From: Nitrospirota bacterium
GTDB lineage: Bacteria; Nitrospirota; UBA9217
Direction of reading: 5' to 3'
Assembly: GCA_963737155.1 (NCBI GenBank)
Contig: CAVTRN010000002.1
Coordinates: forward strand, 64,001-128,000
Length of the DNA stretch: 64,000 nt
The notes beneath the pieces are model-generated. The model ran no database searches. It was not told where the DNA came from and saw only the letters and a list, made by a program, of their open reading frames with translations. Each line of letters begins with the position of its first letter. The stretch's first letter is position 1. The position numbers were made by a program, and so were the translations under genes. Shown piece by piece: positions 5,000-61,528 of this stretch.

Positions 5000-5170
5000 A
5001 TGGAAGCCACAACAGCTCAGGAAGTTTTTGTTGCCAGTAAAACCATCATCGTCATAATATCCAAAATTAAAAAAAGATTTTTTCACCTTCCTCGCAATTC
5101 TGGCCATCCGGCCTTCACCTACAATCTTGCAGCCATGTTGACAATAAATCTATGAAGAATACGGGTTCAA
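5000..5170 (+). repeat. Boundary repeat copy A (arm 5000-5113 plus 57-bp core 5114-5170)
   Basis: TGGAAG...CAGGAAG arm; core TTCACCTACAATCTTGCAGCCATGTTGACAATAAATCTATGAAGAATACGGGTTCAA. Confidence 0.85.
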
Positions 5171-5217
5171 ACTTTATACGAAAAAAAATAACCAGCGTGG
5201 CGCGATGGGTTAGATCC

Positions 5218-5464
5218 TTATACTCGCTTGATGAAGCGTAAGGCGAAAATGATCACAATCGCGCCGATGGTTGCAACGATAATTGCGCCGAGTAGACCCC
5301 CACCCAAGGAAACACCAAATGAGCGAAACAGAAAGTCCCCCAAGCAATGCGCCTACCACGCTCACGACGATGTCGCCGATGACACCGAAGCCGCCACCCT
5401 TTATGAGCTGTCCCGCTAGCAACTCAGCCACCAAACCAATCAAGATGAACCAAATAAATTCCAT
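5218..5464 (-). pseudogene. GlsB/YeaQ/YmgE (transglycosylase-associated) membrane protein, frameshifted copy
   Basis: MEFIWFILIGLVAELLAGQLIKGGGFGVIGDIVV then frameshift; paralog of 13967-14212. Confidence 0.8.
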
Positions 5465-5778
5465 AATTATTCCGCTTCTACGATATTCGCTTCTTGCTTT
5501 AAGTATGTTGCCTCTTAGCGCTGTGAGGAGGGAGTTTCGATGAATTATTTGCACCGCGTATTTGAATGCTTTGCTCTATCTTGACCATCTGAGGTTGTTC
5601 ACCCTGAGGGGCAAGTCAGATATATTAATCGATGCGCACCGAGTATGATCCGCTTTACGTCGTCTCTTTCATGGATACAGTTCGAAGTTAAAGTGTTACA
5701 AAGAATGGATATTTCGCGAGAGGAAGTAATGCATATGGAACGTTTCGAAAAGCAATTTATTATCCTTCCTTAATTCCC

Positions 5779-6336
5779 TCACTTTACCAACGCATAGTTC
5801 AAAAGAACATTCCCGTTTCCAAAAACACGCGTCTTTGTTAGCTTAAGAGAGAATCGGTCTTTCACTCCTTCGAACATAGTCTTTCCCTTTCCAATAACGA
5901 TTGGATTCAGCAGGATTTGGTATTCATCGATTAATCGATCCTGCGCCAATTGCGACACAATGCTGCCACTTCCGAGCACGGTTAGGTCCTTTCCCGACTC
6001 CTGCTTCAGCTTTCGGATTTCCGTCAACATATTATCCTTCACCAGTCTCGTATTATTCCAATCAGCCTTGGTCAGAGTCCGAGAAAAGACGATTTTTTCA
6101 GCCTTGTTCATTCCTTGGGCCACGATTGGATCATTCTTGATAGCTTCTGATGTAGGCCAATAGCTCACCATGAGCTCGTACGTGACGCGGCCGAATAAGA
6201 GCGTATTACCAGAATTCGAGGCCATTTCTGCCAGTTCCTGGAACTCCTCATCCACATTATGCCAAGAGATGTCGCCTCCTTGGCCAGCAAAATAGCCGTC
6301 CAGTGTGACCAGATTGAATACAATTAATTTTCGCAT
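5779..6336 (-). CDS. Dihydrofolate reductase-like (RibD C-terminal) protein
   Basis: MRKLIVFNLVTLDGYF, LLFGRVTYE, GSGSIVSQL, LIDEY, PIVIGKGK. Confidence 0.9.
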   Translation of the reverse strand: MRKLIVFNLVTLDGYFAGQGGDISWHNVDEEFQELAEMASNSGNTLLFGRVTYELMVSYWPTSEAIKNDPIVAQGMNKAEKIVFSRTLTKADWNNTRLVKDNMLTEIRKLKQESGKDLTVLGSGSIVSQLAQDRLIDEYQILLNPIVIGKGKTMFEGVKDRFSLKLTKTRVFGNGNVLLNYALVK

Positions 6337-8093: not shown

Positions 8094-9617
8094 CAGGTTA
8101 TACTGTTTTTAGTTGAAATTGAAAAGAGTGGCTCCCCCGTGGCATAATCCACGGTAGAGAGAGAAAAAAGAAAGGAGCCACTCAATGAAGGATACCACAA
8201 GGAAGAGAAAAAAGGCAATACGAGGAATTGAAGAGGCATACGGAAGGCGGGAGATCATCGAACAGATGTATTGTGTCTTCGCAAAAGGGAAACAGGGTTT
8301 TGATGAATGCATGAAGGAAATGGGCAGAATGATGGCAGAGACGATCATGTACATCGAGCGGGAGGAGATTGCCGGCCCCGACTACCAGCCTAACAGTCCC
8401 GATCTGCGGAAGTGGGCTAGCCAGGGCGGTTCCGTCTATATCGGCGATCAGAAGATCCCGGTGACCCACCCTCGGCTTCGAGGTCCGGCGGGTGAGATTG
8501 TACTGCAGAGCTATCAGAAGATGAAAAAACCGGAAGTCTTCGCAGAAGAATTGCTTGGAAAGGTGCTTCGGGGCATATCATGCCGGAAGTATGCGGAGAC
8601 AGTTGTAGATACGGCACGAGCATTTGGAGTGTCCGCCAGCACGGTATCGAGCCATATCGTCGCGGCAACAGCAAAACAGCTTCAGGAGTTTAAGGAACGG
8701 TCACTCACGTCATTCGTTCCCTTTGCGGTCTTTTTAGACACTGTTCACCGCGGCGGAGAGGCATTCATCGTGGCGCTGGGGCTTGATATTGCCGGAAAGA
8801 AGCAGACATTGGGGTTCTGGCAGGGGGCGACGGAGAACCATGAACTGTGTGAAGAGCTGTTTTCTGATATAGAGCGGCGGGGTCTGATACTTTCACGACG
8901 AATCATCTGGGTTACCGATGGCGGCAAGGGCGTAATCAAGGCACTCCGGGATCGCTTCGGTAAGAAACTCATCCATCAGCGGTGCACGATCCACAAGGAC
9001 CGGAATATACAGCATCATTTGCCGAAGAAATACCGGAAAGGCGCACACTGGAGGTTCCGGACAGCCCTGGAGCAGAATAATTACGCGGACGCTCGTCAGA
9101 TGCTTCTGGACATGGAGAAATGGCTTCGGGGCATTAATGAGTCGGCGGCTGATTCGCTCATGGAAGCGATAGAAGACATTCTCACCCTTCATCGATTGAA
9201 GGTCCCCGCTCTCTTGAGGAAGACGTTGCATTCTACCAATCCTATCGAGAGCATGTTTTCCACGGTGAGAAAAGCAGAAGGCAATATAAAGCGCTACCGC
9301 GACAGCAAGATGATGCAGCGCTGGCTCGCTTCTGTCCTCTTATATGCTGAACAAGGATTCAGAAAGATCAAGGGCCACGCCTTCATCGCGGACGTGATGA
9401 AACGGATCGAAGCGGAAGAATTAAATGACCTAACAGTCAAAGAGGCTGCGTAAAGGGGGATGGTTAGGTATGGCTCGGCCTCAGAAAACTCACATATGGC
9501 GATCCTACGAATCCGATTTTATAAACAGCGATGATTTACACCGTTGAACCGATAAAAATACTTTAGCCGAAGGGAACGGGCCACTCAGATAATTTCAACT
9601 AAAAGCTTGACCTCGTC
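8094..9617 (+). mobile_element. IS256-family insertion sequence, copy 1 (1524 bp)
   Basis: Imperfect IRs sharing TTTTAGTTGAAATT; flanking DR GTTGATCT (8086-8093 and 9618-9625); near-identical copy at 55450. Confidence 0.95.
8185..9453 (+). CDS. IS256-family (Mutator-like) DDE transposase
   Basis: VFLD, VTDGGKG, QRCTIHK, STNPIES motifs. Confidence 0.95.
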   Translation: MKDTTRKRKKAIRGIEEAYGRREIIEQMYCVFAKGKQGFDECMKEMGRMMAETIMYIEREEIAGPDYQPNSPDLRKWASQGGSVYIGDQKIPVTHPRLRGPAGEIVLQSYQKMKKPEVFAEELLGKVLRGISCRKYAETVVDTARAFGVSASTVSSHIVAATAKQLQEFKERSLTSFVPFAVFLDTVHRGGEAFIVALGLDIAGKKQTLGFWQGATENHELCEELFSDIERRGLILSRRIIWVTDGGKGVIKALRDRFGKKLIHQRCTIHKDRNIQHHLPKKYRKGAHWRFRTALEQNNYADARQMLLDMEKWLRGINESAADSLMEAIEDILTLHRLKVPALLRKTLHSTNPIESMFSTVRKAEGNIKRYRDSKMMQRWLASVLLYAEQGFRKIKGHAFIADVMKRIEAEELNDLTVKEAA

Positions 9618-10095
9618 GTTGATCTTCACCATAAACTTCCTCCCGTTCGATGCTGAATAATAAATCATACGGCTGAACTTGAAGCAACCGAAAAGGAAAA
9701 CGAATACCGTTCGAAACATGGTATTGAAGAATCTCAATCTGCGACGTTAATTTCACAAGTACATTCGCGCCACAACTTCCCCAAAGTTTCACGTGAGGTA
9801 CGGCAAGCCCTGCAAGCTGCTGACGTAATCCATCACATTAAATGGAGGACGATAGTAATCTGTGGGCGCCCTAATGCTGAACAGATCAAAATCGCCGGGA
9901 TCTGGAGGTTCTTGAGGTTCCATAGTGTGATTTGATATCTAGCCTCGCGGAAGCCTGTATTTATGCTTGAGAAAAACAAGCAATCGACACTTTTTTTACA
10001 TTTCCGACTGAGGCAAAACAAATCAATTCGCTGCGTCTCCCAACAACACCTGAAGAGCTACCCGCAATAAGTTGTAGTATTGACATTATTGACTA

Positions 10096-10146
10096 AAATA
10101 AAAAAGCCGAGCAGATCGAAAGAATTTATCCTTCGGCAGCTCGGCT
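10096..10146 (-). terminator. Intrinsic terminator forming the riboswitch expression platform
   Basis: Minus strand GCCGAGC...GCTCGGC followed by TTTTTTATTTT; overlaps the aptamer 3' strand. Confidence 0.7.
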
Positions 10147-10212
10147 GTCTTGGTCTTATAAGACCCGTGGCTTTCCGTCCCCCTCTCGCGAAGGGTTTGG
10201 CTTTTATCGGGG
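10128..10212 (-). ncRNA. c-di-GMP-I (GEMM-I) riboswitch aptamer
   Basis: Minus strand AAAGCCAAACCCTTCGCGAGAGGGGGACGGAAAGCCACGGGTCT...AGACAGCCGAGCTGCCGAA fits the GEMM-I consensus. Confidence 0.9.
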
Positions 10213-10523: not shown

Positions 10524-10790
10524 TTACGACATTCTAGCATCAAAAACAAAAGGCAAGGGGTCACTGATACAGATTTTCTTAAAATCGCGGTGAGCAGGGT
10601 TAAGCACATAGTTCCAGCTTCTTGGAACGAGAACAGAAGGGACCTTTAAAACAGCAGTGCCAGCCTTTACCCAGTTAGAACGGATATCTTTTGTCGAATC
10701 TTGCGGCGGCTCTCTGGTCCAGTCATCGGGGAGATCAGATGCTTTCAGCTTTTTAAAATTGATATTCCCGAGAGCGTCCCCATGAGCAAA
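10524..10790 (-). pseudogene. RES-domain toxin C-terminal fragment
   Basis: LPDDW...AVLKVPSVLVPRSWNYVLNPAHRDF; N-terminus missing. Confidence 0.75.
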
Positions 10791-10941
10791 CGTTAACAAA
10801 TTCCAGTATGAAGTGTTGACTGTTGCATAGTATAGAAACACTAAAGATTCAGACGAAGCTATCAATAATCACGGATTGTAAAATGCACATGAGTGAACGG
10901 GCGAGGGACAAGGCGGCTTAGACAAAGAAAAGATCACGACG

Positions 10942-11694: not shown

Positions 11695-11820
11695 TTCAGG
11701 CAGTAAGGTTGAATTAATAATTCAAATGGAATTATTCACTCGCTTTGCGATTCCGGTTCCCTGAGGTCCTACAAGCTTACTGTGCTGTTGACAAAATTAC
11801 TATACCTACTAGTGGTTGAC
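11695..11820 (+). repeat. Boundary repeat copy B (core ~11765-11820, 3-bp deletion in CACC)
   Basis: Arm homologous to copy L (TTCAAAYGGAAWTATTCACTCG...GCGATTCYGGTTCYCTGAGGTCC); TACAAGCTT...TTGAC-N21-GGTTGAC. Confidence 0.8.
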
Positions 11821-11949
11821 AGTCGCATATTGCCGGCTGCGGTTTCCGTATGAAGTATGGCTGAAATGAAGACAGCCTGACAGAAGAAGGAAAGACACAG
11901 GAACGACCGCCCCGGTGGTGGTAGCTCGAATTGATTGTGAAGCAGCAAA

Positions 11950-12628: not shown

Positions 12629-13462
12629 CTACTTTGCTGTACCCTTGAGAATGCTGCCGATATCTTTATCATCGTATTGTTCTCTTCTCCAACGGTAAGG
12701 CATATCGATTATCATACCCGGTTCTTGTATCGTGTACAGAGCCCGCAATGCTTCTGCCAACACCACGCGCTGCTGTGACATATTAAATGGCTCGCCGAAG
12801 GGATGACCGAACGGCCATCTGAGAAATATGGTCCTCGGCGGCTTTACCTTTTCTGAATATTCCCGTACGATCGATACGCCGATCGTGGGGATTCCCGCCT
12901 TCTCTATTTCCCGCTGTATCAATCCCACGGATTGGTTGCAGATGCCTCATCCCGGTGTCAACAGAACGATATCGACATTGTCGTTTTTGAGACTCCTGGC
13001 GACTTCAGGTGCGTTTTTACTGATGAGCGTAGGGATGTGCCTGCCTATTATGTGCCCCATGAAACTGTAATGAAAGTCCGCAACACGACCGATGTGTCCT
13101 TCCTTTTCTAATTCCTTGAGCCTTTCTACGGGGAAAACGATGTTGATGTCTCTATCGGCATCAGCATGATCATAGTAGTCGTGGGTGATCATCAGACTCG
13201 AAAGTGGCCTTCTGAGATCGATAATCCTGTATGACGGGTCGCCCTCGCGGTCTTCCATATTGAAGGGTTCCTGATCTATGTGATGAACACCTGCCGTTGT
13301 CACGATTGCTATCGAGGATTTATCGAGGGCCTTTGCCACCGGGGCCCAGGGGATATCAAGAGATTTGCACGGGTCGTAGGAGGCGATAAATCTCTTTGCG
13401 AGCGACGGGAAAAGAGTAATTATCTTCGCAATTAATTTATTTTTTAATCTGCCAATGTTCAT
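12629..13462 (-). CDS. Glycine/sarcosine/betaine/proline reductase selenoprotein B-like protein (Sec at UGA 12947-12949)
   Basis: Two in-frame ORFs joined by TPG-UGA-GIC-NQSVGLIQREIEKAGIPT (UxxC); IVTTAGVH, GDPSYR, DRDINIVFP motifs; SECIS-like hairpin follows. Confidence 0.85.
12914..12946 (-). promoter_or_regulatory. Putative bacterial SECIS element
   Basis: CTG..CAATCC-GTG-GGATTG..CAG hairpin; apical G 19 nt after the UGA. Confidence 0.7.
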
Positions 13463-13966
13463 CAGACATTCGTAATCTTACGAGTTAGTTGATGATTGAT
13501 TTTCCTGACGATAGTTATATCACGTGATCGGAGCTTCTATCTGGATGTGCAGCCGGTGGATAGGGTAAGCACTTGTCTGCCTTTAACCTGCGTATTTCTC
13601 CGATGATGAAGCACTCCCTGCTTGGAATATCATCAACGTGATAAAAGAAAAAGCCGAGATGTTCCCGATTTTTCATCGGGAATACCCTTATGAGCGTTGC
13701 TTCACTACTGATTCCTGATCGCTTCCTCGAGTTGGTCCCGTGACACATCACAACCCCGGAGCACGACTCTTCCGTCGATCTCTCTGGATGGAAACGTCGG
13801 CATTGACACCATATCAAGAAGACCGAAGCTGGTCTTCTTCAGGATTTCCACTTCAAAAGAAGGTCTTCTTTAGTTCCGCGGCCGCGGCGCTGATCTGTTT
13901 CCACCTTCCCCCCCTTGGGGGCCGTTAAAATAGAGACGAATTCGCATTGGGCGTCGGGCTAGATCC

Positions 13967-14212
13967 TTATGCTCGCTTGATGAGGCGCAAGATGAAAATG
14001 AGCACTATCGCGCCGATGGTTGCTACGATAATGGCGCCGAGTAGGCCCCCACCCAAGGATACACCAAAGGCGCGAAACAGAAAACCTCCAAGCAATGCGC
14101 CTACTACGCCCACGACGATGTCGCCGATGACGCCGAAGCCGCCGCCCTTCATAAGCTGTCCTGCTAGCCACCCAGCCACCAAGCCAACCAAGATGAACCA
14201 GAAAAATTCCAT
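13967..14212 (-). CDS. GlsB/YeaQ/YmgE stress-response membrane protein
   Basis: WFILVGLVAGWLAGQLMKGGGFGVIGDIVVGVVGALLGG. Confidence 0.9.
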   Translation of the reverse strand: MEFFWFILVGLVAGWLAGQLMKGGGFGVIGDIVVGVVGALLGGFLFRAFGVSLGGGLLGAIIVATIGAIVLIFILRLIKRA

Positions 14213-14484
14213 GATTTTACCCCTCCTACAAAAGACCCATTTATACGGACCGCTTCACGGAAATGAGGTTCAACCAGTTATTAAATACTTACGGGGCTAT
14301 GATATAACTTTGCTTCCCGTTCGGTGCTACCCAAGGCGAATATTTACATGTCTATCGAAAATCCTTGCCCTTCGTATTATTACTAGCATACGGTTTCCGA
14401 TATTAGCAATCCCCTGTCAATATTCCGCCGGAAGTACCACGTATATTAATCAAATTATATCATACCTGGCCTGTCAAAACAGAC

Positions 14485-15936
14485 TCAGGGTTGTCGTACA
14501 GCACCGTTATAAAAGACCTCGCATTTGCCGCCTCGAAAGAAACGTATTGCCTTTCTGTAAAGATGGGTGAATTGGCCTGCAAGGGACTCTGTTGCGCTAA
14601 CTGCGCTGACCGTGGGGCTTCCGAGGGGACCGCTGATGCTTTGTTCCATATTTGCGCATCCCTTGTCATCGAGAAGCGCCACGGTTACATTATCATATCG
14701 TTCGGTGACAAGGTTGAGCTTGCCTTTAAGTGCGACCCGATTATGGCTCGTCGCAAGGGCGCAGTCCGTAGCGTCCGCAATACCGTCCTTAATCTTCCAA
14801 TGCGAGATGAACTGCGTAATCGTGCCTTGCCCTCCCCGGGTCTGGTAGTAAACGTCTCCGAACCGGTACGTCTTGAGCGCAGCAGTATTGATGATCGGGC
14901 CAAGCGGGCCAACGATGAAGAAAGCGCCGAGGTCGACCAGGTGGAACTCCTGGCTCGATTTATACGATAAGAGGACCTTGTCGAGATCCATAGTATAAAT
15001 GACGAGATTGTCACCCCGTAAAGAAATAGTACCGTTTATACCGTTGATCAGAACGCGACTTCCCTTCTGGCTCATCGTCAAGGAGGCAGAAAGATCACTC
15101 TTTCCGCCGATCACCTTTTTTATTCCGAAAGACTCCTCAAGTTTTGCAAAGTCCAGTGTCAACACTTTCAAATTGAGTTTATACACAGTATCGACTCCTG
15201 ACAAATCTATCGTGGCATCTCCTTCACCCTTCCCGCCGAAGATATCCATGGTAAGGTGCATGAGGCGGATTACTCCATTCTCCGCTTTTAGAGAACTCTT
15301 GACGTTATTGATTTTGAGGTCCTTTTTCCACACCTCCTTGCAGCCCAGGTTTCCCGTAAATAAGACCTTCGTTGTAATATTGTCTTTTGCGGAAATGTCT
15401 ATCGAGAGGTCCTTAATAGCCAGACTGATTTCTTTCAACTCGGTCTTTTCACCCGTTTTCTTGTCAAGATAGACCAGTGTCCCCTGGGACAGCCTGAGTT
15501 CCTTCAAACTGAAAGCTCCCGTCACCCCTCCTTCTGCTGATTTATTTTCAGCACTTTCGAAATTATATTTCCCCTCGTTGTCTTTCACGATGGAGATAGT
15601 CGGCTTGACAAGCTCGCAACTGGTGACCTTGAGTTTCTTCGCAAATAGGGGGATTATCTCAACCCCCATCTTGAGTTTTTTGATGGTAAGAATCGCGCCT
15701 TCATTGTTGGCGACACGGATATCATCAGCCGACACACTAAAGGGAAAGAAAGAGAGCCCCATCTTCCCATTGATCTTAACATTGAGGCCGGTCGCCTGTG
15801 ACGCAGCAGTTTCGATGCGGTGCTTGTAAGAGTTAATGTTGAATAATAAGACGGCGGCAATTGCAGCGATTACAATCAGGACGACGACGCCCGCGATCAA
15901 CAGAATTTTATTCCTTTCCGCTACCATGGCTTTCAC
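14485..15936 (-). CDS. AsmA-family protein
   Basis: N-terminal TM anchor, NINSYKHRIETAASQATG...INGKMGLSFFP; beta-rich. Confidence 0.8.
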   Translation of the reverse strand: MKAMVAERNKILLIAGVVVLIVIAAIAAVLLFNINSYKHRIETAASQATGLNVKINGKMGLSFFPFSVSADDIRVANNEGAILTIKKLKMGVEIIPLFAKKLKVTSCELVKPTISIVKDNEGKYNFESAENKSAEGGVTGAFSLKELRLSQGTLVYLDKKTGEKTELKEISLAIKDLSIDISAKDNITTKVLFTGNLGCKEVWKKDLKINNVKSSLKAENGVIRLMHLTMDIFGGKGEGDATIDLSGVDTVYKLNLKVLTLDFAKLEESFGIKKVIGGKSDLSASLTMSQKGSRVLINGINGTISLRGDNLVIYTMDLDKVLLSYKSSQEFHLVDLGAFFIVGPLGPIINTAALKTYRFGDVYYQTRGGQGTITQFISHWKIKDGIADATDCALATSHNRVALKGKLNLVTERYDNVTVALLDDKGCANMEQSISGPLGSPTVSAVSATESLAGQFTHLYRKAIRFFRGGKCEVFYNGAVRQP

Positions 15937-19029: not shown

Positions 19030-19158
19030 TTTCAGGAAGGAAAACTCGACCTATGTTTCAAGAAAAAACTGTTAATATTCATATTGAAAATCGGTATCGG
19101 ATTCACCTACAATCATGCAGTAGTGTTGACTAAATTTCAATGCATAATACTACATGGA
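19030..19158 (+). repeat. Boundary repeat copy C (core 19102-19158)
   Basis: CAGGAAGG at 19033; TTCACCTACAATCATGCAGTAGTGTTGACTAAATTTCAATGCATAATACTACATGGA. Confidence 0.85.
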
Positions 19159-19165
19159 AATTGTA

Positions 19166-19225
19166 AATGAACTGCTCGGCTGAGAGGGGCAGTTTTATCG
19201 ACCCTCTCAAACCGAACAGTTAGAA
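19166..19225 (-). repeat. attC-like hairpin (60 bp) downstream of the GNAT gene
   Basis: Minus: TTCTAAC-TGTTC-GGTTTGAG...CTCAGCC-GAGCA-GTTCATT; extra base in the 5' L arm. Confidence 0.5.
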
Positions 19226-19268: not shown

Positions 19269-19714
19269 TCATCTTAAACATAACTCCATATACTTTGTTG
19301 TTAGCCCTGGGCTAAACCGGGATGGTTCGATATGTTTGAACCCCAAACGTTTGTAGCGTCCTATGGCAGACTTTATGCGTCTAGAGTATCCGGCCTTTTT
19401 TTCATATCCCGAATTTCTTGCTTCTTGAATCAGTGCGATGCACAATTTTCGGCCTATATCCTTATTCTTGAATTGGTCATAGACATATAGACGCTTCATC
19501 TCACAAACAGTGGGATCAAGCATTCTCAGACCTACGCCACCCGCAAGCTCGTCTTCGTGCCATGCGAGAAACAAAAGACCGTTCGGAGGGTCATACATTG
19601 AAATATATGATAATTCCTTCTCGATACATACTGAAACGATAGATCAACGTTGAGCCGGCGAACGTAGTCTTTCACTAGCTTGCTTGGCAAGAAGAAAATC
19701 AGAATCTTTTTCAT
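19269..19714 (-). pseudogene. GNAT acetyltransferase, frameshifted
   Basis: YVRRLNVDLSFQ / YDPPNGLLFLAW...GVGLRMLDPTVCEMKRLYV split over frames. Confidence 0.75.
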
Positions 19715-33906: not shown

Positions 33907-34897
<991 letters not shown>

Positions 34898-35304: not shown

Positions 35305-37629
35305 TCAAACAGCCTTATTCTCCATCGACTCCAGGTATTTATCTATGTCTGCTGCGCCAGATAAAAGAAATTGGAAAAAACTAACATTCTTTAGCCGCAA
35401 AGTTTCACAGATACTCAACAGGACAAGATATTCCTGGATACCTTTTACAATTGCATGACCGCCGGTCACGCGCCTCAGAAATACGAAGCGTTTAACGGCA
35501 TGTTCCGCGTTGTTGTTCCATGGAACGTTATCATAGTCAAGAAAAGTGAACAACTTATCTTTATATTTCATGAATCTTTTTTGAAATCCCATTGCAAATT
35601 CGGATGAGTAGGCTATTGGCTCTATTTTGTCAAAGAACCGTTGAACTTCCACCTTATGTTTATTAAGGTGCCGTTTTTTAAGCCAAATTTATCAATCGTA
35701 TCAATTATCGGTACTAATAACATTGTAAATTCTCTGCCCAAACATTTCATCTCGACATCAAAAGGATTTCTCGATATATCTTCATTCCAAGCAGTTAGCG
35801 TTTGACCATATCTCTCAGGTGGCAATTTAATATAGGCTCTTGATGACGACACCCTTCCACACCATTTTAAAAACAAATCTTGTTGATGTATATTTTATAA
35901 CCCACCTTTTGATACCTCCAGAAATAATTTTCAAATCGTATAGCAATTTTGACGTTTGGCCATAACGGGATAGCTGCGTCGCATGACAGTGTGGACACGT
36001 TCTTAGCGGTCGAAATTTAATATCTTTGTTTACTTTGTATGAGATGTGTTGACGTCGTCGTAATTTATTTAATCTCTTTTTTGCAACAGTATTTTCGCGC
36101 AGGTATACCTTCTCTCCTTGATAATCAAAGTATGCGCAACGATTAATTTTTTCAAGTTCTGGAAAGCAGAAGTCATTACGACTGAAAAATCCATAGGGTT
36201 TTTCTCTCTTAGGCTGATAAGTATGCATTGTATGGTACTTAGTTGCGTTGCTATCTTTGGAGATAATCGACAAAGAGTGCACAACTGCTTGTAAAGCCAT
36301 GCAATCTTCGCTGTTGTAAACTATAAGTTTTTGTTTAAAGCTAGCATTTCCTGTTGCTTCCCACTGTTTTCGCCGTAGAACGCTCGTGATACCTGCTGCA
36401 TCTGGCTCTGACCATTTGAATTCCAAGAAAGATGCAATACTTTTCAGATCATTAGAATACGTCGGGAAATAGATGCGGCCATATAATGCGGACAACACAT
36501 TGAAGGAGCGCGATCTTATCTTTTCAAGCAACTCCGTATTGCCACCGTTTTTCGATCCCATCTGCTTTATAAAATTAGTCTCATAACTCTCATAATGAAA
36601 CAATGCATAGTCAGGGATATCTTTCATTACTTCAAGAAAAGACTTCCATATCTTCGTTTCTTCGGACTTATCGTTTGCCCAAAATGAATGTTTAGTAACA
36701 CTAGTCCCATCATCGATAATGAGACCGATGAGATAATAGATGTTCTCATCAGGGATACCTTCAACGTCAAGATATACGCGTGTTAGTTCAGAAGGCAACT
36801 CTGGTTTACCAGCGATATAAACTGTCTGCGTTCGAATTGCCAGGGCATTAAGTGAATGATGATGCTTGACTATCTTTTGTGCAATCAGTTTTTTAGCTCG
36901 TCTCGGACGGAACGTATACGAGTACTGTGTAACAGTAAATATTCCTCCTTTATTCAAAGCATCTATATCTTTCCAACTTAGCCCTTTGAGAAGACTGAGA
37001 TCGTCCTTTTGTTTCGCTGTTGCCATGCAGCCAGCTAAAAATTCGCAAATTTTACAATGAGCATTCAGCCTCAATGGTGATACCGATTGTGTTTCCATCA
37101 TCCTGAGTAATTCTTTTTCTATCTTGCCTGCGGCAATGATCAACTTTGGGTGTTGGACTCTTGATAACCTGAATTTATATCCAAAAATGAACTTACCGAT
37201 AGTCGGCTCAACCTTCTGTTCGCAACTTAAGGCCAAGCCGCAGAATGCCAATAAAAGTTTGTGTTGTTATCTTTTGATGAGGTAAATAGATGATCGGATA
37301 ATAGGCTGGTTTTAGGGAAGAGGACGGGGATGCTAATTCGATTGCACCTAGAATGAGCTTATACCTATTATTGATTATCGCAACATCAGTAGCAACGGCT
37401 GGCCTTTGTCTCTGGATGTCTTTGAATGTGGTTGTTGCTTCGTGAAGTGGAATGAATTGATTGCTTTGTCGGAAATAATCCCAAGCATGTCGCCGATAAG
37501 ATGCCTTCTGGTCATCCAGAAGCTTTTCGTAATCGCTCTTAATTCCAGTTTTGCCGGAAAGCTTCAGATATGTTTGTATTTGCACTGAAGATAATTCAGG
37601 AATAGTTTGTCAGATATTGGATGTACCAA
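35305..37629 (-). pseudogene. TM0106-family nuclease/RNase H-like/IS66-transposase fusion, frameshifted and internally deleted
   Basis: HCKICEF, VYLDVEGIP, YFPTYSNDLK, YNSEDC, CPHC, WNNNAEHAVK; paralog of 61649-64000. Confidence 0.8.
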
Positions 37630-38613: not shown

Positions 38614-38749
38614 TGCACAGCTCCTCACGATGCGGCTTAACTTATGATGCCGTCTGCCCTGGCTCATGACTTGCAGATTCTAGAGTGAAATAAGCGCTAA
38701 ATGTTTCGACTAATAATTCTTACTACCACAATATCTGGCGTTCATCGTC

Positions 38750-38806
38750 TTCACCTACAATCATGTATCAGCATTGACAATATTTCAATGAAGGATACTG
38801 GCTGAA
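38750..38806 (+). repeat. Boundary repeat copy D core
   Basis: TTCACCTACAATCATGTATCAGCATTGACAATATTTCAATGAAGGATACTGGCTGAA. Confidence 0.85.
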
Positions 38807-38937
38807 AAATACATAAGTAAAAGAATTGGCCGTAGTAATTATTTATCTAGGGTTTGTTGAGCACTTTGGGCTGCGGCGTCAGCGTATCGGGAAACAGCCC
38901 GAGGATGTCCAAAGAGAACAACGGGTCGTCTCTGCGC

Positions 38938-39684: not shown

Positions 39685-40063
39685 ACACCCTCCGTAATAA
39701 AAGTCACCGAATGAACTAAAGATCCATCTTGCGGGCTGAATGCTCTTCCTATGTTCGCTTTTTCCAGCCTCCTAACTGAACGTCAAAATTTTCTCTAGAT
39801 ATACCGTTAACCATCATTGTGATCAATCCTTGTGAACATGAGAGAACGGCAAAAACATCGTTCTGAGAGGGTCGAGTTCCACCGTTAAAAGTGTGAAGTC
39901 CGCCATTTAGAATAATACTTGTCGTATTTAGAACGACTATATGCCTGATATAAAGAGATGTCAACTATATGGGTGTGCGATCCCCGCGAAGGGGTATTTT
40001 CGGGGTGGCCGCTAAGAGTTTCCCGTAATTCTTCATCTATTCTATAGAACATGAAGTGCTAGA

Positions 40064-40119
40064 TACACCTATAGCTTGCACCGGCGTTGACTAAAAATAA
40101 ATGCAGATTACCACATGTA
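40064..40119 (+). repeat. Boundary repeat copy E core
   Basis: TACACCTATAGCTTGCACCGGCGTTGACTAAAAATAAATGCAGATTACCACATGTA. Confidence 0.75.
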
Positions 40120-40411
40120 ACTTACACCATAGCAAGATCGACGAAACTGCTCGATCTTCACCGTGGGATGACGAGATAATCGGTGTGGATCATCCCGTCC
40201 AACGACTCCGGCGCAGAAGAAAACAACCTGTACTCATGCGGTTTTCTGAACAGTAAAAAATAGCATAATAAAAGTGATAACAAGACTCCAAATTGAAAGT
40301 ATTTTTAGGGTATTCGGATTTTGCGGTTGATTTTGTCTAAAGCTCGCCCTGTTCTTCGGGTTTAGTAGCTATCCAAAATGTCAGGCGCTCCTTTGATTGT
40401 TTATGAAATTA

Positions 40412-41864: not shown

Positions 41865-42072
41865 AAGTTAATGATAGCACGGGGGTCTATAACGGGCAAG
41901 GGAAAGGCAAAGGGGTTGATGTGACCCTTGCATATTCCAATGGGATTGAACACTCATTCTGATCGTGTTCTGACGGCAATTCCGATCTACTTCGGACATT
42001 CAATACGAATTGCGGTAGTACATACTTCAATCCGAATATTTGCATAGTTCCGCAGTGGTTTAAAAGCTTGGC

Positions 42073-42130
42073 TTCACCTACAATCATTGAATGTCAACAT
42101 TGTGACAAGGGTGAAGATTGTCAGATTGTA
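42073..42130 (+). repeat. Boundary repeat copy F core (subtype with central TGTCA-N6-TGACA)
   Basis: TTCACCTACAATCATTGAATGTCAACATTGTGACAAGGGTGAAGATTG; near-identical to copy H over ~50 bp. Confidence 0.85.
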
Positions 42131-47197: not shown

Positions 47198-47743
47198 AAG
47201 GCCTCCGGAAATGTTGGCTTTAAGTCGAAAAGACAAAAAATAACTATGTAGAACATTAACACAGTGAATGAGGGATGTAAACAGTATTTGGGGGTCGGGC
47301 AATAGCTATTGATGGATGTAATTGCGTGTTATTCAAGATGTATTCTACAATTTCAAAGAGATGCAATCGTCGCGGATTTCAGGAAGATTTTTTGCCGGAA
47401 GGACCGTATCATAACATCCATAATCCAAACGGAATGTTTCACCATCCTCTTAACAGGCCTTGCGGCTTACATCTACAAGCATGCACTGCCAATATCTTGA
47501 CGATGCAAAGAATACTAAGTAGTATCTTGCATTGAAAGGGTGTGAAAATGTTACAGCGTTTTAAAATGCTAAAGGCGAATTATTTCTTGTCGAGAATTGT
47601 ATCTTTTGTGGGCAGCCGGCGCGGAGTCTTGCGGCACAAATAACTCACTCCGTAATAGCATAATATAAAGAGCTGATTTCCACCTTTTTCATCTCCAACT
47701 ACCCGCGTTCGACATGGCCAAGTGTACCATGCCTCTAAGTCAT

Positions 47744-49259: not shown

Positions 49260-49350
49260 GAGGAAGGTTTATTAACCGAATGATTCAACCGATATCTTCC
49301 AAATTCTTATAAGTCACCGTTCCTACTGTGTACACCTACATGATTACAAG
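49260..49350 (+). repeat. Partial boundary repeat copy G (arm plus left half of core)
   Basis: GAGGAAGG ~70 bp before TACACCTACATGATTACA (49331); right half not recognisable. Confidence 0.5.
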
Positions 49351-50606: not shown

Positions 50607-50771
50607 ATGGAAACTTCACCTGGTAGGAAGGAGTTGCTGACAGAGAACTTTATCACAAAATGCAATGATATAAAATGAATTCTGCACCTTCGACAATATT
50701 ATATGAAACTTGGCTTCACCTACTATCATTGAATGTCAATATTGTGACAATGGTGAAGAATGCGGGTTGAA
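50607..50771 (+). repeat. Boundary repeat copy H (core 50715-50771, 3 bp from the kinase stop codon)
   Basis: ATGGAAAC..TAGGAAGG arm; TTCACCTACTATCATTGAATGTCAATATTGTGACAATGGTGAAGAATGCGGGTTGAA. Confidence 0.85.
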
Positions 50772-50774
50772 ATA

Positions 50775-53700
50775 TTAATTGCTAAGCGTCTTATTTAAGA
50801 CTTCTGTGAGAGCGTTAACATCATAGGGTTTCTTCAAAAACGCCCTAAATCCCTGCGTAATATAATTCGCAGTTGCCGCATCATCGGAGTATCCGCTCGA
50901 TACGATAGCTTTAACTTGAGGATCCATTTTGAGTAACTGCTGGATCGTTTCTAGCCCACCCATGCCTTCCCGAATTGTGAGGTCGAGGATAACGATGTCA
51001 AAGTGGCTCCCGGCATCCATCGCATTTTTATATTTTCCCAATGCTTCTTCGCCGCGATTTGCAACGTCAACGTCATGTCCCAGCAAGACAAGCAGTTCTC
51101 TGTTCAGATTCCTGATTACTTCTTCATCGTCCATAACGAGGATCTTTGCTTTTCTCGATTGGGTAGGCTCGTGTTGTTTTTCCGCGGATCCCGTCCGGAC
51201 CTCTCCTGCGATCGCAGGAAGATATATTGTGATCGTCGTTCCGATACCTGGTTTCGTCTTAACATCAATCATGCCGCCGTGATTTCTGACAATTGAGTAG
51301 GAAGTTGCCAACCCCAGCCCGCTTCCTTTCTCTTTGGTCGTGAAATAGGGGTCGAAGATTTTATTCAGATACTGTTCTGGAATACCAACGCCGGTGTCAC
51401 GGATAGCTATCATGACATAGTCAGCCTGTGTAAGCCCGAGGGGGAGCGATGCATCGCCCTTTGCTATGTTCGCAGCCGTGACCTTGACTGTGCCGCCGAC
51501 TGGCATGGCTTGATCCGCATTCAGCACGATGTTCTGGATTACCTGCCCCAACTGACCTCCATCCGCCTCTGCCTGCCACAGGTCTTCCGGGAGGTTCATA
51601 CGGAGACCGGAGCGGGAGCCGCTTAACGTAAACTTTGCGGAGTTTTCAATGATTGGTCGGAGATCGACCTGTTTCTTGACTGGTGTGCCACCCTTGGAGA
51701 AGGTCAGAAGCTGGGTCGTGAGATTAACCGACTGATGAAGTGCTTGCTCGGCTTGTTCCAAGGCTGCTGTGCTTTTCACCGGATTCTTTGCAGTCATCTT
51801 TGCCAGAGAAATGTAGCCGAATACTCCTTGAAGCAAATTGTTAAAGTCATGGGCAATGCCGCCGGCCAGTGTGCCGATAGACTCGAGTTTTTGCGTTTTG
51901 AGTCGTTCTTCCTCGAGCAGATATCTCTCTGTGATGTTATTGATCGTCTCGATGACAGATATTACGGCACCAGACGAATCTTTAATAGGGAACGCTCTAG
52001 TCTCTACGAAGAGGATATTGCCATTGGAGTCTTTGTGGCGGTGAACTGTCGAATAAGGCGTGCCCGTTTCGAAAGCTTGGTGTGGCGCGCAATCTTCACC
52101 TTCTTCATAACAAGGCCGGTTAGAGCGGTGAGATACCTTGTAACAGTGCTGTCCGATAATTTCTCCATCACTGCCGCCAACTTGTTTGCAGTATGTCTTG
52201 TTTGCAGTCTGGATGCGGTAGTCCTGGTCTACGACGATGAATCCCTCATCCACAGTATCGAGGATGCTCCTGATGAACTTTTCGCTCTGCAGGATTTTCT
52301 CCTCAGCCTGTTTGCGTTCAGTGATGTCTTGACAGGTTCCGCTTAAAATAGTTTGCGTACCAGTATCGTCGTGAATAAGTTCTCCTTGAGAATGGAGAAT
52401 CCTGGTTGTGCCATCCCTTAAAATAAATCGATAGTCAATAATGAATGGCTTGCGCAGCACCGCCTCCTCAATGGCTTTTTTAAGTGCACTCCGGTCAACC
52501 GGGTGGATCATATTGAGGAACATGGTGAAGTTCGCAGTGTCTTTCTTTGGATCAAGCCCGAACAACCGGAACAGCTCATCAGACCAGATCACCTGACCAT
52601 TCGTCTGATTGTGCTGCCAGCTCCCGATATGCGCAATTCGTTGTGACTCGGCAAGCTGTTTTTCCCGTTCCTTCAGCGCTTCCTCCATCCGTTTGCTTTC
52701 GGAGATGTCTGTGTGCATGCCGACAAGGCCAACAACGTTGTCTTCTTTATTCTTAATAGAATATGCACGGAGATAAATATCCCTTTCTGTTTTATCTTTA
52801 TCTAACATTTTTACTTCGCCTGCAAAAGAACCACCCTTCATGATTATGTCAAATACTTTTCGTCCAACTTTTTCATCAGCGTATACAGTTGCAGGCGGTC
52901 CTGAAACACCATCGACTTCCCTAATAGATAATCCGAACAATTTAGTATAAGCCTCATTTTGATAATAATGCCTTCCAGCAGGTGTAGCCATACCAATTGC
53001 ATCTGTTGCGCTATCCACTGCCATCTGAAAATAAAGAAGCGCTTCCTCAGCCCTCTTGCGATCGGTGATGTCGCGCATTAAACAAAAAAACATTGGCTGT
53101 TTATCAAGCAAATAATTAACACTCGCTTCAATATTAATAACTTTCCCATCTTTGCGTCTATGCTTTGTCTCGAAGCGGGCATAACCAGTCCCTATGATTT
53201 GTTGGAGTCGCTTTTCAATTACTTCTTGCGTATCCAGTACTTCAACATCTTTTACACTCATCTTAAGCAGTTCCTCATTGCTATAACCTATCATCGAGCT
53301 ATAAGAATCATTAGTTTCTAAAATTTGACCTTCCATATCGACAAGATAAAAGCCATCCATCGCCATGCGAAGAATTGTCTTAATGCGTTCTTCCGCTCGC
53401 TTGCGCTCGGTGATATCGCGAATAACGCTGCAGCAGTATTTGATACCTTCAATCTCAATTAATTTAACCTGTGCCTCCGTTAAGAAAACCGAAACATCTT
53501 TTCGCATATGAGTTGATTCAAAACGCAGTTCCCCCGTTCTTAGCAACTCACTTATTCTTTGAGAGAAAAACTTGTTCTGCTCTGAAATTATAATTTTCGA
53601 CAACTTCATCCCAATCATTTCTTCTCTCAGGTAGCCTCGGGATTCATAAGCTGACTTGTTGGCGAAGACTATATTGCCATCTAGGTCGTGGATGAGGATC

Positions 53701-54061: not shown

Positions 54062-54186
54062 AAAGGAAGGGGGGGCATTGTATGCTTCAATGTCAATTGC
54101 GCACCTCTACTAATATTATACGAAATTCGACTTCACCTACAATTTTGTACTGGTGTTGACGTTCTATATGCATTTTTGCTGAATCT
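54062..54186 (+). repeat. Boundary repeat copy I (core from 54132)
   Basis: AAGGAAGG arm; TTCACCTACAATTTTGTACTGGTGTTGACGTTCTATATGCA. Confidence 0.8.
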
Positions 54187-54561
54187 TTTGATATCGCATT
54201 CATGATTTTCATGCATTATTGAGGTTTAATGAATGCTCTACCATCTATTGATTTGCTTGAAAGCTTAGCTACTCTATTGAATCTATCATTGTTTCTAAAA
54301 GCTCTAAGAAAATACTCATACACCCAATCATCCTTGATGAATGCCCTAATTAGCGTCCCTCTTGATATTTCGCATGTATCCCATCCTGTTGTATATTCTT
54401 GTTCTCATATATGCACTACAGGGCAAATAGTCGTAAATAACATATTTATAAAATATTAATTCTTTTGCGATTCTTATTTGCAGCATCTTTATGCCAATCG
54501 TACTAATATTCTAAGTATGGAGAGCACATTCTAAGCCAACAAAAAAGCAAGGAGGAGTTAC

Positions 54562-55350: not shown

Positions 55351-55449
55351 TTCATACTTCTTGCGTTGCAAAGAATGGCACACAATTGACACAGGAAGCT
55401 CTTTTTACCTGAAAAACCATATCATAATATCCATGATTCAAACAGAAGA

Positions 55450-56973
55450 CAGGTTATACTGTTTTTAGTTGAAATTGAAAAGAGTGGCTCCCCCGTGGCA
55501 TAATCCACGGTAGAGAGAGAAAAAAGAAAGGAGCCACTCAATGAAGGATACCACAAGGAAGAGAAAAAAGGCAATACGAGGAATTGAAGAGGCATACGGA
55601 AGGCGGGAGATCATCGAACAGATGTATTGTGTCTTCGCAAAAGGGAAACAGGGTTTTGATGAATGCATGAAGGAAATGGGCAGAATGATGGCAGAGACGA
55701 TCATGTACATCGAGCGGGAGGAGATTGCCGGCCCCGACTACCAGCCTAACAGTCCCGATCTGCGGAAGTGGGCTAGCCAGGGCGGTTCCGTCTATATCGG
55801 AGATCAGAAGATCCCGGTGACCCACCCTCGGCTTCGAGGTCCGGCGGGTGAGATTGTACTGCAGAGCTATCAGAAGATGAAAAAACCGGAAGTCTTCGCA
55901 GAAGAATTGCTTGGAAAGGTGCTTCGGGGCATATCATGCCGGAAGTATGCGGAGACAGTTGTAGATACGGCACGAGCATTTGGAGTGTCCGCCAGCACGG
56001 TATCGAGCCATATCGTCGCGGCAACAGCAAAACAGCTTCAGGAGTTTAAGGAACGGTCACTCACGTCATTCGTTCCCTTTTCGGTCTTTTTAGACACTGT
56101 TCACCGCGGCGGAGAGGCATTCATCGTGGCGCTGGGGCTTGATATTGCCGGAAAGAAGCAGACATTGGGGTTCTGGCAGGGGGCGACGGAGAACCATGAA
56201 CTGTGTGAAGAGCTGTTTTCTGATATAGAGCGGCGGGGTCTGATACTTTCACGACGAATCATCTGGGTTACCGATGGCGGCAAGGGCGTAATCAAGGCAC
56301 TCCGGGATCGCTTCGGTAAGAAACTCATCCATCAGCGGTGCACGATCCACAAGGACCGGAATATACAGCATCATTTGCCGAAGAAATACCGGAAAGGCGC
56401 ACACTGGAGGTTCCGGACAGCCCTGGAGCAGAATAATTACGCGGACGCTCGTCAGATGCTTCTGGACATGGAGAAATGGCTTCGGGGCATTAATGAGTCG
56501 GCGGCTGATTCGCTCATGGAAGCGATAGAAGACATTCTCACCCTTCATCGATTGAAGGTCCCCGCTCTCTTGAGGAAGACGTTGCATTCTACCAATCCTA
56601 TCGAGAGCATGTTTTCCACGGTGAGAAAAGCAGAAGGCAATATAAAGCGCTACCGCGACAGCAAGATGATGCAGCGCTGGCTCGCTTCTGTCCTCTTATA
56701 TGCTGAACAAGGATTCAGAAAGATCAAGGGCCACGCCTTCATCGCGAACGTGATGAAACGGATCGAAACGGAAGAATTAAATGACCTAACAGTCAAAGAG
56801 GCTGCGTAAAGGGGGATGGTTAGGTATGGCTCGGCCTCAGAAAACTCACATATGGCGATCCTACGAATCCGATTTTATAAACAGCGATGATTTACACCGT
56901 TGAACCGATAAAAATACTTTAGCCGAAGGGAACGGGCCACTCAGATAATTTCAACTAAAAGCTTGACCTCGTC
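55450..56973 (+). mobile_element. IS256-family insertion sequence, copy 2 (1524 bp)
   Basis: Same ends as copy 1; DR AACAGAAGA at 55441-55449 and 56974-56982. Confidence 0.95.
55541..56809 (+). CDS. IS256-family DDE transposase
   Basis: 422 aa; 3 visible amino-acid differences from copy 1. Confidence 0.95.
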   Translation: MKDTTRKRKKAIRGIEEAYGRREIIEQMYCVFAKGKQGFDECMKEMGRMMAETIMYIEREEIAGPDYQPNSPDLRKWASQGGSVYIGDQKIPVTHPRLRGPAGEIVLQSYQKMKKPEVFAEELLGKVLRGISCRKYAETVVDTARAFGVSASTVSSHIVAATAKQLQEFKERSLTSFVPFSVFLDTVHRGGEAFIVALGLDIAGKKQTLGFWQGATENHELCEELFSDIERRGLILSRRIIWVTDGGKGVIKALRDRFGKKLIHQRCTIHKDRNIQHHLPKKYRKGAHWRFRTALEQNNYADARQMLLDMEKWLRGINESAADSLMEAIEDILTLHRLKVPALLRKTLHSTNPIESMFSTVRKAEGNIKRYRDSKMMQRWLASVLLYAEQGFRKIKGHAFIANVMKRIETEELNDLTVKEAA

Positions 56974-57015
56974 AACAGAAGATTTTACTTCCCCAATAAT
57001 TCTTAACCTCCCACC

Positions 57016-57072
57016 TCCACCTACTAGCTTGTAGTCCTGTTGACATAAAATCTATCCAGACTACTGGTTGAT
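57016..57072 (+). repeat. Boundary repeat copy J core (arm split by IS256: 55375-55449 and 56983-57015)
   Basis: TCCACCTACTAGCTTGTAGTCCTGTTGACATAAAATCTATCCAGACTACTGGTTGAT. Confidence 0.85.
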
Positions 57073-57079
57073 AATTGCA

Positions 57080-57137
57080 CATCAACGAACGGGTTCAGCA
57101 GCTGGCGTAGACAGTTGCCTGAAACGATGGGTTCGTC
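57080..57137 (-). repeat. Integron attC-like site (58 bp) downstream of the GyrI-like gene
   Basis: Minus: GACGAAC-CCATC-GTTTCAGG-CAACTG-loop-CAGCT-GCTGAAC-CCGTTC-GTTGATG; 5/6-bp unpaired spacers and two extrahelical bases. Confidence 0.65.
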
Positions 57138-57163
57138 GCGCATCCGCTATGTCGCACTATATT

Positions 57164-57628: not shown

Positions 57629-57723
57629 AAAGTGACAACTCCGTTTTCGTATTTTAAAAGAAACACATCAGGGTAAGCTGCAACCGATATTTTCCACGTC
57701 TCCTAAAACTTACCAATGCGCAG

Positions 57724-57779
57724 ATCACCCGAGTCTGCGCTGCCAATATTGTGACTACGGCAAAAAATACCACATGTAA
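57724..57779 (+). repeat. Boundary repeat copy K core (divergent)
   Basis: ATCACC..CAATATTGTGAC (as in H) then TACCACATGTAACTTACACC (as in E). Confidence 0.65.
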
Positions 57780-57950
57780 CTTACACCGTACCAATATATT
57801 CTCTTGTGAGTTGTTTAGTTCTCAATTTCACCTCATCGAACAGTAATGCAATTTCTTCAACTTATAAAATCAAAATTTAAACAATCTAGTCGTCCTTTGA
57901 ATATAAAGATTCCCGCGGACCAAATCTCTTGAATGGACCTTTCCCACATG

Positions 57951-60857: not shown

Positions 60858-61079
60858 GGCCTTATCCTTTTGTCATTGTTTTCTTGATAAATATCGAGAG
60901 CTCTTATAATAACCGAAAGGCTGCCATTTATAAACAATTATTTGATTGTCTTGAGAGCAGTCAACATAGTCACCTCAAGATAAATGGTTCTTAGACCCTA
61001 AACCAGGCGGCATCCTCCCTGAGAGTCAATGCAAGTTTGGCTAAGCTGATAAAAATCTTGACGCGGTCATCGTTCCGGT

Positions 61080-61340
61080 TCAGAACCTCACCAACGACCT
61101 CCCTTGTGCGTCAACGCTTCGCTCAATGGCACGCTTATCAGCGGCTCTCTCAAAGCGATTGGCTGAACGTAGTCTTGAAAAGTGTTCAATCCATACGGGG
61201 CAAATCCAATCTCCGCTTGGATCGTCTTTAATCTTCGTCGGTTGACCGACTATAAGTCGTGACGACATTAATCGTCCGTCTTGAAGCTTATAATGCCATA
61301 TATCCTCTGCAATCGGATGGTCAATTCGGTCAATAACCAT
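61080..61340 (-). CDS. Hypothetical protein, possibly degraded
   Basis: Short ORF, LIVGQP...GDWICPVWIE. Confidence 0.4.
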   Translation of the reverse strand: MVIDRIDHPIAEDIWHYKLQDGRLMSSRLIVGQPTKIKDDPSGDWICPVWIEHFSRLRSANRFERAADKRAIERSVDAQGRSLVRF

Positions 61341-61399
61341 GAGAACGCATCACCTTTTCATATTTTCATAATGGTTTTTGTATTTATCACGTTACGAAG

Positions 61400-61528
61400 A
61401 TCAGGAAGAACAGTTTACTAAAAACTTCAAACGGAAATATTCACTCGAGTGGCGATTCTGGTTCTCTGAGGTCCACCTACTAGCTTGCACAGAAGATTGA
61501 GAAAAGCGGTTGCAATCTTCTGGTTGAA
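61400..61528 (+). repeat. Boundary repeat copy L (core 61472-61528)
   Basis: CAGGAAG at 61402; TCCACCTACTAGCTTGCACAGAAGATTGAGAAAAGCGGTTGCAATCTTCTGGTTGAA. Confidence 0.8.

Follow-up and report, generated by a model that had tools for sequence, protein, structure and literature searches.

A dispersed, integron-linked site at the borders of cassette-like gene modules in a family of Nitrospirota

A stretch of 64,000 nucleotides from a Nitrospirota bacterium (the window, corresponding to G000:C2:64001-128000, where G000 is the genome analysed here) carries between its genes repeated copies of an intergenic sequence, the core, which raise the question of what kind of element they represent and whether the genes lying between them travel as units. 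A preliminary description had taken these copies for the junctions of a site-specific system that joins unrelated modules; this part is borne out by one-sided homology in ten of ten comparison groups and by a module found at two loci of a related genome (G001), whereas the accompanying ideas of independence from integrons and of a single array did not hold. The sites delimit cassette-like modules, and the system is linked to integrons without being a canonical integron. With confidence little better than even, we favour the reading that each copy is a double-stranded att-like recombination site of ~200 bp, and that modules would be cut out as circles and restacked by single crossover.

G000 consists of two contigs of 1.76 Mb (C1) and 3.08 Mb (C2) with 49% G+C, and its GC skew suggests that they close into one chromosome. 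Copies of the repeat were sought with an nhmmer profile seeded with 8 window copies and with a sequence-only covariance model built from 28 aligned copies (R1, the core model), and attC sites with a covariance model built only from the 11 sites of an intI-linked array in G064, a genome of another genus (R2, the attC model); the latter is narrow and misses other hairpin types. The related set comprised 64 genomes of the order, all belonging to one family and representing 19 genera.

Breaks of homology at the core

The conserved unit extends over ~200 bp, roughly from -125/-80 to +75 around the core start, and not over the ~57 bp initially assigned to the site. In all-against-all BLAST of extended copies (lettered A to L in the window; Table 1) similarity runs from about -80, in some copies from -140, to +75, beyond which a structure-only similarity continues to about +130. 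Column information places the conserved blocks roughly 8-12 nt apart. As we would divide it, the unit comprises a left arm of 60-125 bp in which sub-families can be told apart, a putative crossover zone of at most 20 bp lying between the first and the third conserved box (+6 to +24 from the anchor), and a right arm of ~50 bp whose conserved blocks would be spaced by roughly one helical turn.

The break-point comparison took in 120 oriented copies from G000 and its relatives, with 2.4-kb flanks, all against all; two loci fetched twice were set aside, the compared loci hold a core in both genomes, the genomes are species-level, and the junctions were located by eye in sequence that is itself conserved. 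All ten groups obtained, which are either between-species comparisons or within-genome duplicates, display one-sided homology that breaks inside the core (7 right-sided, 3 left-sided); synteny breaks away from the sites, one of the observations that would have refuted the preliminary reading, were thus not what the comparison gave. The right-sided homologies comprise the gene, the hairpin and the right arm; five of them start at +6/+7 (C1_236951 with G001; the katG locus in G000, G001 and G011; G001 with G011; a 99% duplicate within G001; G011 with G036), one at -18 and one, in a diverged core, at +81, the right arm being in these pairs about as similar as the adjoining gene (92-99%). The left-sided homologies, made up of the left arm and the downstream gene, end at +20, +49 and +58 by BLAST, while by eye identity falls to background at +11 to +16; in the +20 group the left side of window copy E together with its ParA module (from 38903) matches G011 at 97% over 1.18 kb. 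G001 further holds a 1.1-kb module at two loci, 99% identical and bounded by two successive cores. It begins at +6 of the first core and stops three bases after the first box of the second; where it occurs for the second time, it gives way to unrelated DNA and only model positions 3-29 are kept. Left-only and right-only partial matches to the core model also occur, and when copy H was compared with G000 by BLAST, 11 of the 24 matches stopped within the first box or at most 4 nt after it. The spacing between the first and the second box is the same in 25 of 28 aligned copies. Taken together, one-sided breaks, half-site junctions and constant box spacing therefore point to exchange within a zone of at most 20 nt followed by exact rejoining, which is the signature of site-specific recombination, including the integration of a circle at a half-site.

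Under the favoured reading a module would consist, in gene orientation, of the left arm, one or more genes, a terminator or attC hairpin and the right arm. Recombination between two direct copies would excise it as a circle, an intermediate that we infer, and a single crossover would reinsert this circle at another full copy or at a half-site, leading to tandem accumulation. The same breaks might instead have been left at a dispersed intergenic repeat devoid of its own enzyme by homologous or microhomology recombination combined with selection for intact genes. This we judge unlikely: it would be in keeping with the many copies per genome (1-50), with their concentration in a zone of low GC skew that is rich in insertion sequence (IS) elements and pseudogenes, and with the lack of a cognate recombinase among the families searched, but the breaks cluster at the left edge, which is less conserved, within no more than 20 nt, and not in the longest identical runs of the right arm. 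Moreover, unrelated copies are ~60% identical per column with short identical runs, whereas bacterial homologous recombination needs longer ones, the joining is exact in register in those 25 of 28 copies, and the half-site junction in G001 faces unrelated DNA. Repetitive extragenic palindromes with their associated transposases (REP/RAYT), miniature inverted-repeat transposable elements and other selfish small repeats are ruled out on the features compared, given the lack of a fold, the conservation of both flanks in 0 of 10 groups and an orientation that is not linked to the replication arm.

The attC hairpin beside the core

A G+C-rich hairpin of 45-60 nt, different in sequence from one site to another, comes after many of the copies. 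The attC model, derived from G064, in which a classic repeated-hairpin array adjoins intI, has 12 matches in G000; eight directly adjoin a core and lie on the gene strand, overlapping its last block by 8-13 nt in seven cases and leaving a 12-nt gap in one, while the other four fall in a core-poor cluster at C2:1.683-1.687 Mb or at C2:134.6 kb. The same attC-core register recurs in 4 of 6 matches from four other genomes, three of them from other genera, and in 8 of 13 matches from G001, G011 and G036 (matched to the anchors by hand). At many cores the adjacent hairpin is a genuine integron attC, and its constant register means that the R-prime end of the attC abuts the right arm at its outer edge. 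Integron integrases cut attC at the R-prime end, and a junction placed exactly there would be expected if an integron integrase had once inserted cassettes at this position. Many modules may have begun as ordinary integron cassettes. With many cores fused in constant register to true attC sites, and with intI scoring above the curated cut-off in 28 of the 64 related genomes, the system can no longer be regarded as independent of integrons. By the same narrow model five matches lie within 9 kb with no intI nearby (G000 C2:1,683,101-1,692,010), and the window holds a single attC at E<=0.1.

The core itself behaves differently from its neighbouring hairpin. At E<=1 and with filters off, the attC model recognised no core in the window, where its matches were only the hairpin by copy C and an unrelated weak match at 4288-4315. 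RNAalifold returned zero consensus pairs for the core in 28 copies and again zero, on both strands, for the segment from -75 to +82 in 51 copies from several genomes. The imperfect dyad reported previously does exist at the level of the consensus, in which 70.0% of cells pair; this value lies above slid controls (16-42%) yet equals that of column shuffles (70.5 +/- 1.1; 351 of 500 shuffles reach the observed value). The symmetry is therefore a property of the consensus that compensation does not maintain, and the dyad, which lacks covariation, is not a selected hairpin. On these three results, a model blind to it, no fold and a dyad without compensation, the core does not qualify as an attC. 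A small RNA or structured leader is ruled out, there being no consensus structure on either strand and no match to any known RNA model of Rfam 15 at gathering score at the cores, a check that the preliminary description had proposed; in the window the sole Rfam match is a c-di-GMP-I-GGC riboswitch (Table 1), and no tRNAs were found. Hairpin stability carries no strand bias (32 vs 27, p=0.36). The core columns exhibit no 3-nt periodicity and their stops are out of register, which leaves no coding signal and rules out a small open reading frame (ORF) across the core.

These results bear on a further explanation, in which the core is an atypical attC- or attI-like site used only by the integron integrase (IntI) of the family, every junction being IntI-made and G000, without intI, being a fossil. 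Such a view is doubtful, although it can draw on the presence of intI in 28 of 64 relatives, on attC adjoining the core exactly at the R-prime end, on a consensus dyad of attC-like length whose pairing exceeds that of slid controls, on a break zone located at one end of this dyad, and on the reported precedent of cassette insertion by integron integrases into double-stranded attG sites of the genome, which are cleaved centrally (bioRxiv 10.1101/2022.09.11.507474). The genomes richest in cores (G000, G001, G011, G010 and G036) nonetheless lack intI, and the 99% duplicate attests to a recent event in the intI-less G001. The core model found no core-like sequence in 134 kb around intI of 10 relatives, even at E<=10; the attC model is blind to the cores, the dyad shows no covariation, and exchange at the canonical attC junction was seen in 0 of 10 groups. 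A complete integron is ruled out, G000 being without integron integrase and the 134 kb surveyed around intI in relatives without core. The idea that the core serves as attI for the integrons of the family is rejected: the neighbourhood of intI yields no match, and a short resemblance noticed by eye upstream of intI in G064 did not score.

To return to the favoured att-like site, its putative enzyme is probably a tyrosine recombinase, which could be a past or in-trans integron integrase or a different host recombinase. It is tempting to speculate, though we advance this only tentatively, on a second layer placed atop integrons, in which a family-wide, double-stranded landing-pad site would capture integron cassettes at its outer edge and a crossover inside the site, not made by a resident IntI, would excise, shuffle and stack modules holding from one to many genes, allowing intI-less genomes to keep a cassette economy.

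Distribution, orientation and the search for an enzyme

In G000 the nhmmer profile gave 49 matches at E<10 and 31 at E<1e-3, located on both contigs and both strands, and the core model 38 copies at E<=0.01. Among the relatives the core model detects between 1 and 50 copies in each of 38 of the 64 genomes, belonging to 10 of the 19 genera, with the largest numbers quoted here for G001 (50), G011 (23), G010 (13) and G036 (13). In a phylum-wide sample 14 of the 27 genomes from this family gave a match, as did 1 of 12 from one other family and none of the 111 remaining ones; plasmid and phage collections gave no match. Instead of the one local array with a recombinase at its end that had been envisaged, the copies are dispersed across the genome and the family. 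G090, which belongs to another family of the phylum, has a single high-scoring core (G090:C2:41171-41241, 55.5 bits) that may reflect horizontal transfer.

The orientation of the copies is tied to that of the neighbouring genes. Following the direction of the motif, the right-hand ORF lies on the opposite strand in 27 of 31 G000 copies, with its stop ~80-200 nt from the core start, and the left-hand ORF does so in 26 of 31, at a more variable distance; of the 60 copies taken from G001, G011 and G036, 59 have a right-hand ORF, and in 45 of these it is opposite. Both orientations occur within one replication arm (C2 69-125 kb on the plus strand, C2 1.51-1.69 Mb on the minus strand), so that core orientation tracks transcription and not replication. 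The flanking ORFs of the 31 G000 copies reveal no conserved neighbour gene family, with one paralogous pair, and no ORF is common to the copies on either side. GC skew is weak or almost flat in C1 1.64-1.76 Mb and C2 0-0.5 Mb, where most G000 copies lie. In this low-skew zone cores, IS elements and gene fragments are concentrated, and in the part of it covered by the window most ORFs stand on what should be the lagging strand.

A constant orientation with respect to the neighbouring genes is also what a purely regulatory module would display, that is, an upstream terminator joined to a promoter or operator shared by a downstream regulon, with breaks falling there as genes must stay intact. We consider this improbable as the whole explanation. 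The block spacing is typical of a protein bound to one face of the DNA, most G000 copies have a real-looking gene starting 46-300 nt past the left arm, and the sequence is conserved in 10 of 19 genera, even in genomes with a single copy; against this, the downstream genes are unrelated apart from the one paralogous pair in G000, the site is seldom retained beside orthologous downstream genes (no more than 3 left-sided groups vs 7 right-sided ones), no -10-like element occurs at a fixed distance from the core, and regulation alone leaves unexplained both the constant attC fusion and the duplicate bounded by two copies. A sigma-70 promoter gains no support from the scan made for it, a single 9-of-12 match being present at copy D and the matches of the region being no more than in shuffled sequence. 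A regulatory role is compatible with the att-like reading as a second function.

Least probable of all, in our opinion very improbable, is that the unit represents the end or the preferred target of a gene-carrying transposon of the IS91/ISCR-like or IS200/IS605 type. The core-rich genomes G001 and G011 hold 23 and 15 Y2-transposase matches, one IS91-like element starts 92 nt from a core, and G000 has 22 Y1-transposase matches; however, G000, G010, G036 and G009 are core-rich without any Y2 transposase, the ends of the multi-copy IS91-like element carry no core, no core is found at Y1 transposase loci, and orientation is not linked to the replication arm as it is in single-strand transposons. 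Y2 transposases (PF04986) are present in 12 of the 64 genomes and absent from G000, and the termini of the multi-copy G001 element are devoid of core, which rules out an IS91/ISCR end; IS200-like ends or another single-strand transposon are ruled out by an orientation unrelated to GC skew and by the absence of cores from Y1 loci. The multi-copy IS91-family element of G001, present at 11 loci at least, encodes a 291-aa tyrosine recombinase directly upstream of its Y2 transposase, and it is a second type of IS91-family element in this genome that starts 92 nt from a core.

Several observations weigh against the att-like reading. Recombinase profiling across the 64 genomes took in three families and found no cognate recombinase tied to the sites; a tyrosine-recombinase-like gene lies within 2.4 kb of 7 of the 120 copies; the best G000 score for an integron integrase (TIGR02249) is 88.7 bits, the cut-off being 265. 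Arm-binding integrases of one family are confined to 5 of 64 genomes, which include neither G001 nor G011, and the integrase fragment by the katG copy adjoins tRNA-Glu, which marks it as an island remnant; integrases adjacent to cores are rejected as the enzyme, being rare and in one case this tRNA-island remnant. No excised circle, empty site or insertion with both flanks conserved was seen in these species-level genomes. The events are undated except for two 99% duplicates, in G001 and G011, and the ParA module in G011 lacks the right arm expected under the model. Ascertainment is biased towards loci with a core in both genomes, so that exchanges at attC junctions would be missed, and the ten groups, drawn from six related genomes, are not wholly independent of one another.

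Other features were recorded around these genes. In G000 the segment C1:22473-26392, by the C1 array, encodes two tandem paralogous arm-binding integrases of 398 and 426 aa, 69% identical (C1:23,760-26,392), and a third, truncated copy whose homology stops 93 nt from core C1_22541; another fragment is found at C2:13285-13767. Two Xer-like genes of G000 lie at C2:2,368,7xx and C2:1,050,7xx. In four species of the genus a core is placed just past the hairpin of the catalase-peroxidase gene (katG; G000:C2:2,985,248-2,985,691), and in G000 it is followed, after ~290 nt occupied by the left arm and the integrase fragment, by tRNA-Glu and the purA-serA backbone. The both-flank test at katG gave no insertion between conserved flanks, the purA/tRNA side of G001 being on another contig.

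The window and its relation to known systems

In the window the core model yields 8 strong matches (A, B, C, D, E, I, J and L), all on the plus strand, with E-values from 1e-21 to 9e-10. The sites listed in the preliminary description can be made out in the letters themselves, and its 11 cores are confirmed in part: F and H share only the left arm and the first box with the others, and K goes undetected by the core model, with no match at E<=1 in the window; a partial copy placed at 49331 finds no support in the same search. The co-orientation stands, since the 8 strong copies and the variants are all on the plus strand, as does the location of 10 of 11 copies from a few to ~300 bp past the stop of a minus-strand ORF. 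BLAST matches of copy A from other species span window positions 4962-5180, and the right-arm variant of H and F has six fuller relatives in G000.

Table 1. Copies of the site and other features located in the window
Feature	Position	Strand	Remarks
Left arm of copy A	4962-5106	+	Semi-conserved, with sub-families; aligned among the left arms of 31 copies
Core A	5107-5175	+	Core model, 62 bits, E 2e-18
Core B	11768-11832	+	Core model, 44.9 bits; match from model position 13 onward
Core C	19095-19172	+	Core model, 72.3 bits; putative crossover zone, +6 to +24 from the anchor, at 19104-19122
Integron-type attC hairpin fused to core C	19164-19225	-	attC model, 28.6 bits, E 6e-6
GNAT gene preceding the attC hairpin of core C	19269-19598	-	Pfam
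Core D	38745-38819	+	Core model, 55.7 bits
Core E	40060-40130	+	Core model, 51 bits
Copy F	42068-42130	+	Left arm and first box with variant right arm; core model, 7.2 bits, positions 4-22 only
Left-half remnant	47464-47502	+	Core model, 13.3 bits, positions 5-38; absent from the preliminary description
Copy H	50711-50775	+	Variant right arm like that of F; core model, 8.3 bits
Core I	54127-54192	+	Core model, 34.4 bits
Core J	57009-57086	+	Core model, 68.9 bits
Copy K	57724-57800	+	Degenerate mosaic remnant; right end as in E, centre as in F/H
Core L	61465-61536	+	Core model, 35.2 bits
c-di-GMP-I-GGC aptamer	10131-10211	-	70.5 bits (gathering score 59); in the A-B module, near the RES-domain fragment
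Mutator/IS256-family transposase ORF	8185-9453	+	422 aa
Mutator/IS256-family transposase ORF	55541-56809	+	422 aa; 200 nt left of core J
ORF with RNase_H_2 (PF13482) and IS66-family DDE transposase domain	61649-63970	-	773 aa
ORF with RNase_H_2 domain alone	35827-37251	-	474 aa

A Pfam scan of 40 window ORFs identified small cassette-like genes (GNAT with attC, GyrI-like, SnoaL, methyltransferases, ParA, PIN/MazE) along with large PAS histidine kinases, two CLC channels, two IS256-type transposases and several truncated genes. The modules had been described as rich in toxin-antitoxin pairs and pseudogenes; truncated genes are indeed frequent, while toxin-antitoxin content is weak, amounting to one PIN/MazE pair and one RES fragment. 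Truncated genes between sites lie at 12947-13462, 33922-34755, 10524-10865 and 14485-15936, and correspond to a C-terminal portion of glycine reductase selenoprotein B, the first 200 residues of a Cpn60 chaperonin, the C-terminus of a RES-domain protein and the N-terminus of AsmA. A small ORF of 114 aa without Pfam family (5207-5481) has an 87% identical partial paralog 8.7 kb away at 13956-14229, without core, and an 85% homolog in G001 with a weak core alongside. The region shares synteny with none of 30 relatives.

Among known systems, lambda-type att sites and the tandem accretion of integrative and conjugative elements and cis-mobilizable elements (ICE/CIME) in Streptococcus thermophilus offer a first comparison. 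As in these, direct copies flank modules, half-sites exist, and a composite site of ~200 bp holds a short central crossover zone between two arms; the site sits just past the 3-prime end of a gene and the modules are without an integrase of their own. The differences from lambda att are the dozens of sites at many loci, in place of one attB, and modules as small as 0.7-1.3 kb. The cognate, adjacent and co-distributed integrase of lambda-type systems has found no counterpart here, the arm-binding integrase occurring in 5 of 64 genomes and any tyrosine recombinase lying within 2.4 kb of 7 of 120 copies. The pdif/Xer modules of Acinetobacter plasmids have 28-bp sites in alternating orientation; with them the present system shares short sites that bound unrelated modules, toxin-antitoxin and resistance genes being frequent cargo, and the use of a recombinase whose gene lies elsewhere. 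The ~200-bp unit and the direct orientation of all window copies do not agree with a pdif site (11-6-11, alternating).

The closest ties are with integrons. Small, unrelated and mostly promoterless-looking genes, each followed by an attC hairpin on the same strand, resemble integron cassettes, and arrays without neighbouring integrase, with direct-repeat sites at the module borders, resemble the clusters of attC sites or single attC sites lacking integron integrases (CALIN and SALIN; Cury et al. 2016, PMC4889954). Gain of circles would be of the Campbell type in both, as we picture it here, and the presence of cassettes at double-stranded genomic sites away from attI recalls attG insertion. 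In contrast to integrons, the break points fall in a double-stranded core ~65 nt beyond attC and not at the R-prime end, modules reach 19 kb, the genomes richest in sites lack intI and the core is absent from intI-proximal arrays; unlike attC, the core is conserved over a long sequence, is flanked by an arm on either side and lacks a selected hairpin.

What is new in these results is the identification of the core-adjacent hairpin as attC and the one-sided breaks of homology inside the core in ten of ten groups. Cassettes located far from any integrase (CALIN and SALIN) are common, which raises the question of how they move. If IntI acts on the core, the site would be a natural, evolved attG- or attI-like hotspot; we know of no natural example of such a hotspot, and a narrow search of the literature on the phylum found none. 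The conserved partner site, with its attC fusion in fixed register and its coincidence with the exchange points, provides a concrete sequence for binding and recombination assays. If, on the other hand, an enzyme other than IntI acts on the core, cassettes would be able to move by a new route, and environmental Nitrospirota would possess an att site of a new class.

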